37,730 bases of DNA from Escherichia coli (GTDB lineage Bacteria > Pseudomonadota > Gammaproteobacteria > Enterobacterales > Enterobacteriaceae): the NCBI RefSeq assembly GCF_003334785.1, contig NZ_QOWV01000026.1; one strand, written 5' to 3'. The stretch's first letter is position 1; the number at the start of each line of letters is the position of its first letter. Positions 1 through 1,923 of the stretch are shown here, piece by piece. A model generated the notes under the pieces. That model did no database searches. It saw only the letters and a program-made list of their open reading frames with translations, and was not told the DNA's origin. Both the position numbers and the translations under genes were made by a program.

Positions 1-102
1 GCTGAACTGTTGCTGGAAGACTACAAAGCCTCCCTGAAATATCTCAGCGATCACCCGAAACTGCAGGGTATTGCCCAACAGAACAGCTTTAAACATACCT
101 GA
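1..102 (+). CDS. gadB: glutamate decarboxylase beta, 3' end only (partial CDS)
   Basis: Frame 1 reads [33 protein letters not shown] then TGA at 100-102; I recognise this as the GadA/GadB C-terminus; gadC follows as in the gadBC operon. Confidence 0.85.
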
Positions 103-122
103 TAACGTTTAACGGTAACGGT

Positions 123-148
123 GTCCCGAAACGAACCCGTTTCGGGAC
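123..148 (+). promoter_or_regulatory. intercistronic stem-loop between gadB and gadC (perfect 11-bp stem, 4-nt loop), no U-tract
   Basis: gtcccgaaacg / aacc / cgtttcgggac inverted repeat read directly; not followed by a T-run, so more likely an mRNA processing or stability element than a terminator. Confidence 0.4.
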
Positions 149-257
149 AATTTCCAAAGTCTGTTCACTGGCATTAGCAACGGAAAATATTGTTCTGAAT
201 ACGCTTCAGAACAAAACAGGTGCGGTTCCGACAGGAATACCGTTTTAGGGGGATAAT

Positions 258-1793
258 ATGGCTACATCAGTACAGACAGGTAAAGCTAAGCAGCTCACAT
301 TACTTGGATTCTTTGCCATAACGGCATCGATGGTAATGGCTGTTTATGAATACCCTACCTTCGCAACATCGGGCTTTTCATTAGTCTTCTTCCTGCTATT
401 AGGCGGGATTTTATGGTTTATTCCCGTGGGACTTTGTGCTGCGGAAATGGCCACCGTCGACGGCTGGGAAGAAGGTGGTGTCTTCGCCTGGGTATCAAAT
501 ACTCTGGGGCCGAGATGGGGATTTGCAGCGATCTCATTTGGCTATCTGCAAATCGCCATTGGTTTTATTCCGATGCTCTATTTCGTGTTAGGGGCACTCT
601 CCTACATCCTGAAATGGCCAGCGCTGAATGAAGACCCCATTACCAAAACTATTGCAGCACTCATCATTCTTTGGGCGCTGGCATTAACGCAGTTTGGTGG
701 CACGAAATACACGGCGCGAATTGCTAAAGTTGGCTTCTTCGCCGGTATCCTGTTACCTGCATTTATTTTGATCGCATTAGCGGCTATTTATCTGCACTCC
801 GGTGCCCCCGTTGCTATCGAAATGGATTCGAAGACCTTCTTCCCTGACTTCTCTAAAGTGGGCACCCTGGTAGTATTTGTTGCCTTCATTTTGAGTTATA
901 TGGGCGTAGAAGCATCCGCAACCCACGTCAATGAAATGAGCAACCCAGGGCGCGACTATCCGTTGGCTATGTTACTGCTGATGGTGGCGGCAATCTGCTT
1001 AAGCTCTGTTGGTGGTTTGTCTATTGCGATGGTCATTCCGGGTAATGAAATCAACCTCTCCGCAGGGGTAATGCAAACCTTTACCGTTCTGATGTCCCAT
1101 GTGGCACCAGAAATTGAGTGGACGGTTCGCGTGATCTCCGCACTGCTGTTGCTGGGTGTTCTGGCGGAAATCGCCTCCTGGATTGTTGGTCCTTCTCGCG
1201 GGATGTATGTCACAGCGCAGAAAAACCTGCTGCCAGCGGCATTCGCTAAAATGAACAAAAATGGCGTACCGGTAACGCTGGTCATTTCGCAGCTGGTGAT
1301 TACGTCTATCGCGTTGATCATCCTCACCAATACCGGTGGCGGTAACAACATGTCCTTCCTGATCGCACTGGCGCTGACGGTGGTGATTTATCTGTGTGCT
1401 TATTTCATGCTGTTTATTGGCTACATTGTGTTGGTTCTTAAACATCCTGACTTAAAACGCACATTTAATATCCCTGGTGGTAAAGGGGTGAAACTGGTCG
1501 TGGCAATTGTCGGTCTGCTGACTTCAATTATGGCGTTTATTGTTTCCTTCCTGCCGCCGGATAACATCCAGGGTGATTCTACCGATATGTATGTTGAATT
1601 ACTGGTTGTTAGTTTCCTGGTGGTACTTGCCCTGCCCTTTATTCTCTATGCTGTTCATGATCGTAAAGGCAAAGCAAATACCGGCGTCACTCTGGAGCCA
1701 ATCAACAGTCAGAACGCACCAAAAGGTCACTTCTTCCTGCACCCGCGTGCACGTTCACCACACTATATTGTGATGAATGACAAGAAACACTAA
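258..1793 (+). CDS. gadC: glutamate:GABA antiporter (APC family)
   Basis: 511-aa ORF, N-terminus [19 protein letters not shown], polytopic hydrophobic protein; position immediately downstream of gadB. Confidence 0.96.
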
Positions 1794-1818
1794 CCATGTC
1801 TGAATGGTTATAAGACAA

Positions 1819-1846
1819 GGGAGCGATAATTCATCGCTCCCTTTTT
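1819..1846 (+). terminator. Rho-independent terminator after gadC
   Basis: gggagcgat / aattc / atcgctccc hairpin followed by TTTTT, 26 bp after the gadC stop. Confidence 0.7.
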
Positions 1847-1923
1847 CGTGCTTGCTGTCGTATTGACTTAACGGGGATAAGTACGAGAATGAGCGCACAT
1901 CTGTTTACCGGAAACCAGCACAT

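Follow-up and report, generated by a model that had tools for sequence, protein, structure and literature searches.

The analysed stretch of 37,730 nt, hereafter called the window, corresponds to positions 1,533,017–1,570,746 of the E. coli MG1655 genome in reverse complement and derives from a K-12-type E. coli chromosome. Its first 102 nt are the 3' end of gadB; a 155-nt spacer, gadC, digH, dosC and further genes follow downstream. The assignment of the two flanking genes to gadB and gadC in the preliminary description of this locus proved correct, with the gadB stop codon at 100–102 and gadC at 258–1793. The features of the gadB–gadC region that are considered in the following are:

1–102, plus strand: 3' end of gadB (glutamate decarboxylase B) with the stop codon TGA at 100–102, from the list of open reading frames and 100% matches to annotated gadB in E. 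coli genomes
122–149, plus strand: hairpin with the 5' arm 122–133 (TGTCCCGAAACG), the loop 134–137 (AACC) and the 3' arm 138–149 (CGTTTCGGGACA), 12 of 12 positions complementary
150–156, plus strand: short tail AAUUUCC, in which an RNA 3' end was mapped to the last U of UUU (153)
157–189, plus strand: conserved, mostly single-stranded stretch of the gadC leader, from the Escherichia alignment
190–214, plus strand: second hairpin, A/U-rich, 10 bp with a loop of 5, from folds and alignment
247–260, plus strand: gadC ribosome-binding site AGGGGGA and ATG start at 258, (nearly) invariant in the Escherichia alignment
258–1793, plus strand: gadC (glutamate/GABA antiporter), the downstream cistron, from the list of open reading frames and database matches
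1817–1847, plus strand: canonical operon terminator of gadC with an 11-bp stem and a T5 tract; mapped 3' end at 1847

The hairpin in the spacer had been described as a perfect stem of 11 bp (123–133/138–148). This is correct, and one further U–A pair extends it to 12 perfect pairs between 122–133 and 138–149, so that positions 121–150 read gTGTCCCGAAACG-AACC-CGTTTCGGGACAa. The stem begins 19 nt past the gadB stop codon and ends 108 nt ahead of the gadC start. A ribosome terminating at a stop codon has a footprint, and a stem starting 19 nt downstream falls just outside of it. Seven of the 12 pairs are G–C and the loop comprises four nucleotides, which is the G+C-rich stem with a short loop that is expected of an intrinsic terminator. 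We calculated a folding energy of −21.1 kcal/mol for the hairpin RNA in a context of 43 nt, compared to −10.0 ± 2.5 kcal/mol for dinucleotide shuffles (z = −4.45; none of 200 shuffles was equally stable), and the hairpin was retained in both the minimum free energy (MFE) fold and the centroid fold of the full 155-nt spacer. Counting perfect inverted repeats with arms of 12 bp or more and loops of 3–20 nt, we found five in the window, compared to an average of 0.05 in 40 dinucleotide shuffles. The other four are all intergenic and lie after digH, after sra and, in two cases, between fdnI and yddM (one of these being a REP). The stem is thus far beyond chance. Its tail AAUUUCCA contains only three U in 8 nt, fewer than the approximately five or more of eight that are required of the U-run of an intrinsic terminator, and a consensus terminator scan did not call the site, nor did we find an A-tract upstream of it. 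The hairpin had been characterized from the beginning as lacking a U-tract, and we can confirm this point.

We also considered whether the hairpin belongs to a family of repeats. In 5406 of 5426 complete E. coli genomes, both the spacer and a 40-nt query around the hairpin are found at a single place. A REP/BIME or another dispersed repeat could therefore be ruled out, with a median of one place per genome and a sequence unlike the REP consensus GCCGGATG...CATCCGGC; true REPs are present in the window at 18394–18503 and do carry a consensus of this type. A search against Rfam 15 yielded no covariance-model match over positions 100–260, even at E ≤ 10.

The 40 nt around the stem are identical in 3598 E. 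coli genomes and carry one or two base differences in 1809. When seven of the variant genomes were sampled, changes within the hairpin were restricted to the loop (AACC, AAGC, CACC) and the loop-closing pair, and two of the seven also differed by one base in the tail just past the stem. No other part of the spacer changes as fast as the hairpin in the cryptic or divergent Escherichia lineages and in E. albertii, where 17 of 30 are identical. Compensatory double changes were observed at four of the 12 pairs, namely U–A to C–G at 122/149 and 124/147 and A–U to G–C at 129/142 and 130/141. Moreover, 95% of the cells of the stem are paired in the alignment, compared to 30–52% when the partners are slid against each other. 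The observed number of covarying pairs was reached by 3 of 500 shuffles, in a small sample that comprises 11 distinct sequences and includes one lineage (MOD1-EC7003) in which the upper stem is weakened. These findings are supportive, although not conclusive, of selection for pairing in the stem. An intact gadB–gadC spacer is missing in 20 of the 5426 complete E. coli genomes. In one strain, KC-Dl-1 (hit H70, NZ_CP063046.1), the match to the spacer is limited to its last 65 nt, over which gadB is annotated, and this suggests a rearrangement that removed the hairpin.

According to the preliminary description, a lack of RNA 3' ends at the hairpin would speak against a role in shaping the operon transcript. 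Published Term-seq data do contain such an end. Adams et al. 2021 (PMC7815308, Supplementary file 1, sheet M63 0.4) list a 3' end at MG1655 1570594(−) with 33,817 mean reads, and the sequence given for it, ...GTGTCCCGAAACGAACCCGTTTCGGGACAATT[T]CCAAAGTCTG, agrees with the sequence of the window. Using the conversion window = 1570747 − genomic (MG1655), this end is located at 153, which is 4 nt beyond the stem and the last U of AAUUU. The adjacent row of the same table (1568900(−), 70,553 reads; PMC7815308) corresponds to the gadC terminator end; it maps to window position 1847, where the T5 tract of the gadC terminator has just ended, and this validates the conversion. Reads at the 153 end thus amount to about half of those at the gadC terminator end in the same sample (33,817 versus 70,553), where read counts are to be taken as steady-state values and not as a measure of termination efficiency. 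The distances of the 3' ends from the last G–C pair are similar, with 6 nt at the gadC terminator and 5 nt at the hairpin. We conclude that a substantial but partial share of the stable 3' ends falls at the hairpin, and that a stable RNA species ends there at a level comparable to, but below, that of the full-length operon end. Both gad ends (153 and 1847) are listed for the M63 culture only, one of three growth conditions, and are absent from the LB sheets, which probably reflects the expression of the operon and not the hairpin.

In the classification of Adams et al. 2021 (PMC7815308) a 3' end is regarded as 'primary' only if it lies at most 50 nt from the end of a gene. Because the 153 end is located 51 nt from the gadB stop codon, it was labelled 'orphan' and carries no gene name. 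The gadC terminator end at 1847 is likewise listed as 'orphan', with a distance of 54 nt from the stop codon. One 'orphan' Term-seq end hence gains a plain assignment as the end of the gadB mRNA. In a full-text search of the published literature we found no paper discussing the gadB–gadC hairpin, nor any that compared gadB with gadC mRNA in level or half-life or that tested the stem by mutation.

For comparison we scanned 80 loci in representative genomes containing GadC, in 67 of which gadB is located directly upstream on the same strand. Automated gene boundaries were confirmed by eye at spot-checked loci, and the stem metric tolerated G–U pairs (a metric restricted to Watson–Crick pairs under-called orthologous hairpins). 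Among the spacers with a length of at least 60 nt, 51 of 56 contain a hairpin whose energy is −14 kcal/mol or better and whose start lies no more than 60 nt from the gadB stop codon. Measured from the stop codon, the 51 hairpins start at a median distance of 16 nt; their median energy is −20.4 kcal/mol, and by sequence they form at least 28 unrelated clusters that share no 9-mer. In the 80 nt that follow the stop codon, uninterrupted stems have a median length of 11 bp, compared to 6.3 bp in shuffles and 6.6 bp in coding windows taken from these loci; MFE z-scores have a median of −3.1, with z ≤ −2 in 77% of the spacers. As nine operons with a spacer under 45 nt contain no hairpin, it is common but not obligatory. 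A T-tract (at least 5 T in 8 nt) follows the hairpin in six of the 51 cases and is absent in the remaining 45. Full T-tracts occur in the orthologues of Yersinia rohdei, Serratia and Comamonas; the Y. rohdei hairpin CGGGGCGGCG...CCAGCCCCG, which is followed by CTTTTTTTT, is a textbook intrinsic terminator. Judged by these comparisons, the hairpin appears to be a recurrent, independently evolved feature of gadBC operons. Within Yersinia both forms can be seen, since Y. rohdei carries its hairpin with T8 (locus L009, 2915–2945), while its sister species Y. massiliensis has an unrelated 13-bp hairpin without a T-tract (locus L018, 2915–2950).

The paralogous gadA gene also has a hairpin about 20 nt past its stop codon and ahead of gadX, with an interrupted stem and the U-rich tail UAUUUAUU (E. 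coli KE48, locus L089, 820–860). Beyond the stop codon, gadA and gadB remain homologous for only about 4 nt (to approximately position 106), from which it follows that the two 3' hairpins are non-homologous. No Term-seq end was found in the gadA–gadX spacer at the coordinate prefixes 36659–36661, which cover most, but not all, of this spacer. A separate observation concerns the proteins themselves. At the loci of non-Escherichia Proteobacteria (L008–L073), GadC is 69–81% identical to the E. coli protein and GadB only about 51–64%. Soluble PLP enzymes are usually the better-conserved partner. This hints at different histories of the Escherichia decarboxylase (gadA/gadB lineage) and the antiporter, i.e. 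at a possibly mosaic operon.

Downstream of the hairpin, the gadC leader is unusually well conserved. A block of 24 nt at 157–180 (AAGTCTGTTCACTGGCATTAGCAA) is invariant in all 14 Escherichia sequences, and the leader as a whole (150–257) is 90–94% identical among the Escherichia lineages, compared to only 67–77% for the third codon positions of gadC and 75–87% for the gadC–digH spacer. This conservation suggests that the leader may have an additional sequence-specific function, such as translation control, an RNase site or the binding of an sRNA or a protein. Covariation of the second hairpin (190–214) is mixed, with one compensatory pair and three mismatched sequences. On the minus strand the same segment scores as terminator-like (tail TATTTTCC), and no minus-strand gene ends there. 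Two further candidates for this region were rejected. Pairing of the sRNA GcvB with the C/A-rich part of the leader, for which the GcvB query sequence was verified against genomes, gave a duplex energy that was equalled or surpassed by 68% of shuffled leaders. A gadC promoter within the spacer was dismissed as well, the sole consensus match (228–257) being placed such that transcription would initiate inside gadC.

With respect to the origin of the mapped end, we favour the following scenario. RNA polymerase would transcribe gadB. The 12-bp G+C-rich stem would then fold, at a distance from the stop codon (about 19 nt) that places it just clear of the terminating ribosome's footprint. A fraction of the transcripts would then end at ...GGGACAAUUU-3' (window 153) by termination that is leaky, independent of factors and driven by the hairpin, at the weak tail AAUUU, where only a 4-bp A/U hybrid would be left after hairpin formation. 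The remaining polymerases would pass into the leader of about 105 nt and gadC, as far as the canonical terminator at 1817–1847. Whatever creates the end, the stem would subsequently block 3'–5' exonucleases, and the gadB segment would accumulate over gadC. The expected result is more message for the cytosolic decarboxylase than for the membrane antiporter from one promoter. Partial termination as the origin of the end, its protection from exonucleases and an effect on the GadB:GadC ratio are what we infer from the combined observations. It seems quite probable that the hairpin is a leaky element that forms and protects a 3' end and gives a gadB-only mRNA, if termination, processing and Rho-based variants are taken together. 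The more specific reading, in which leaky, weak intrinsic termination combined with 3'-end protection yields a gadB-only mRNA within the gadBC operon, is our tentative choice, to which we give somewhat less than an even chance. It is favoured by the coincidence of the 153 end with the last U of the only U-run. In addition, six taxa carry textbook terminators at this place, which points to termination as a generic activity at the hairpin position. On the other hand, 45 of the 51 orthologous hairpins lack a T-tract, which fits a pure exonuclease stop as well or better.

In the preliminary description the hairpin had been likened to elements that often act as RNase E barriers or attenuators and set the stoichiometry of decarboxylase and antiporter. 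The idea of a transcript boundary favouring gadB gains support from the 3' end 4 nt past the stem, from the compensatory changes and from the recurrent hairpins. The wording 'RNase E barrier' is its least apt part, because 3' stem-loops classically block the 3'–5' exonucleases PNPase and RNase II and not the endonuclease RNase E. The original northern blots of gadBC reportedly showed a long gadBC band and a shorter band that is usually assigned to gadA; a gadB-only RNA would co-migrate with the shorter one. At the protein level, one table of the proteome of Mori et al. 2021, in which the meaning of the columns was not established, gives GadA plus GadB at about 3–8 times GadC. This was set aside as evidence for the ratio in view of the fixed GadA/GadB split, shared peptides, the contribution of gadA and the bias against membrane proteins.

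Termination has to be weighed above all against RNA processing, which is nearly as good an explanation and which we regard as possible, if rather less than probable. In this case read-through would be near-constant, RNase E would cut in the A/U-rich single strand after the stem, and PNPase or RNase II would trim back to the hairpin, leaving a stable gadB mRNA and a less stable gadC fragment with a 5'-monophosphate. RNase E prefers RN|WUU, to which the tail AA|UUU fits, and the malE–malF and puf intercistronic hairpins provide classical precedents. No U-tract follows the stem, and since most of the orthologous hairpins have no T-tract either, the stem itself would be the conserved feature; the scarcity of T-tracts among the orthologues is explained better by processing than by termination. 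Adams et al. 2021 (PMC7815308) moreover ascribe most non-terminator 3' ends to processing. However, the end was mapped to 153 and not to the predicted cut between 150 and 151, and it matches the last U of the sole U-run, as expected from termination; our search of the published literature turned up neither 5'-end data nor RNase E data on this site. A further route to the same RNA would be partial Rho-dependent termination in the untranslated gadC leader of about 105 nt or in early gadC, with exonucleases trimming back to the protective hairpin. Dar and Sorek 2018 (PMC6061677) described steady-state ends of Rho-dependent transcripts directly 3' of stable stem-loops without U-rich tails, and the gadB hairpin with its adjacent 3' end has exactly this anatomy (PMC6061677), within a spacer that offers 155 nt of untranslated RNA. 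Nevertheless, the region past the stem is not C-rich and G-poor (C/G ratio of 0.8–1.0 over 150–257 and 0.65–1.14 in 78-nt windows) and is largely folded into two further hairpins. By composition and folding, a C-rich, G-poor rut site free of structure after the stem is not supported, and we consider the involvement of Rho unlikely. Published bicyclomycin data were obtained in LB at an OD of 0.5 and are unlikely to be informative here, as neither gad 3' end appears in the LB Term-seq sheets.

The two remaining explanations assign the stem to a different task. It might mainly serve gadC, either as an obstacle to 5'-end-dependent scanning of RNase E from gadB or by contributing to a fold of the leader that adjusts the translation of gadC, in which UUUCC (151–155) or CGUUUAA (106–112), for example, would pair with the Shine–Dalgarno (SD) region of gadC. 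The MFE fold and the alignment fold each pair a hairpin-adjacent segment with the SD region, and the leader is conserved above synonymous sites and the neighbouring spacer. The SD region has a different partner in each of the two folds, though, the columns involved are invariant and hence give no support by covariation, and both the 3' end at 153 and the versions with a T-tract elsewhere would be left unexplained, so that we rate this role as very improbable. Slightly more doubtful still is the assumption of no role in RNA at all. The sequence would then be a palindrome acting at the DNA level (the operator of a dimeric protein, or a quasi-palindrome repaired by template switching) or the relic terminator of a once monocistronic gadB. 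A dimer could bind to a perfect 12-bp palindrome whose arms are 4 bp apart, and template switching is able to homogenise the arms of a palindrome. Against this, shape and position are kept in other genera with unrelated sequences (at least 28 clusters), the compensatory changes preserve pairing and not sequence, an RNA end maps at the stem, and no regulator site at the hairpin was reported in the literature that we searched.

As an element that probably yields a gadB-only mRNA, with leaky termination as the favoured route, the hairpin can be compared with several known systems. Intercistronic stabiliser hairpins that work via processing are known from the REP of malE–malF in E. coli and from the puf operon of Rhodobacter capsulatus. 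The gadB hairpin resembles them in being a stable stem-loop right after the presumably more abundant upstream cistron, with the upstream mRNA ending at the stem, and in having as partner a membrane protein that is presumably needed in lower amounts; a stem-loop at the 3' end of the upstream gene together with an RNA species ending there is expected of an intercistronic stabiliser, as is a raised level or prolonged half-life of the upstream segment that depends on the stem and on PNPase/RNase II. Unlike the malE–malF REP, it is single-copy and unrelated in sequence to REP, and it is placed in this group by its position and 3' end. In the ABC importer operons of cellulolytic Clostridia (PMC9045158), for example, leaky internal intrinsic terminators set the stoichiometry. 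The gadB hairpin shares with such terminators the location between highly expressed soluble and membrane components, the partial 3' end and the read-through to an operon terminator. It differs from leaky intrinsic terminators in that only AAUUU follows the E. coli stem, which falls short of a U-tract. The protective stem-loops of Rho-dependent transcripts (PMC6061677) have in common with it a stable stem, no U-rich tail and a precise 3' end directly downstream, whereas the bias of C over G that is expected downstream of Rho-dependent terminators is absent at the gadB hairpin. With the hairpin ahead of gadX it shares the position about 20 nt past the decarboxylase stop codon and differs by its unrelated sequence, the gadA hairpin having the interrupted stem and U-rich tail given above; gadX is presumably partly co-transcribed with gadA. 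It is reasonably well supported that the hairpin belongs to the well-known class of intercistronic terminator or stabiliser hairpins, and as such it would not surprise a specialist. What is new here is the assignment of an 'orphan' end to gadB, the covariation of the stem and the recurrence across gadBC operons.

No bacterial acid-resistance system has been studied better than the one with the gadBC operon at its core, and descriptions of how gadBC is controlled deal almost wholly with promoters and regulators. A conserved element within the operon that divides the message would supply a further layer after initiation and would explain how one promoter gives much soluble decarboxylase and less membrane antiporter. 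One may go further and speculate that a U-tract-less hairpin about 16 nt past the decarboxylase stop codon serves gadBC operons across Proteobacteria as a 'stoichiometry valve', conserved widely and re-invented independently, which in E. coli forms a regulated switch together with the unusually conserved gadC leader of about 105 nt; we think this improbable. If it were true, read-through or processing would shift with acid stress, the translation state or an RNA-binding protein, and GadB:GadC would be tuned after initiation. If the hairpin does split the message, keeping or deleting the spacer would also alter the dosage of GadC when gadBC is engineered for GABA production.

Elsewhere in the window, the sole Rfam match at gathering score is the SECIS of fdnG, an expected selenocysteine insertion element (SECIS_3, 84 bits, 22528–22586 on the minus strand, inside fdnG). 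The convergent spacer between fdnI and yddM contains two classical REP elements (18394–18430 and 18459–18503), which are flanked by two palindromes at 18352–18377 and 18527–18558 that share the motif AAATGGCGC; these two palindromes are probably the terminators of the two genes.
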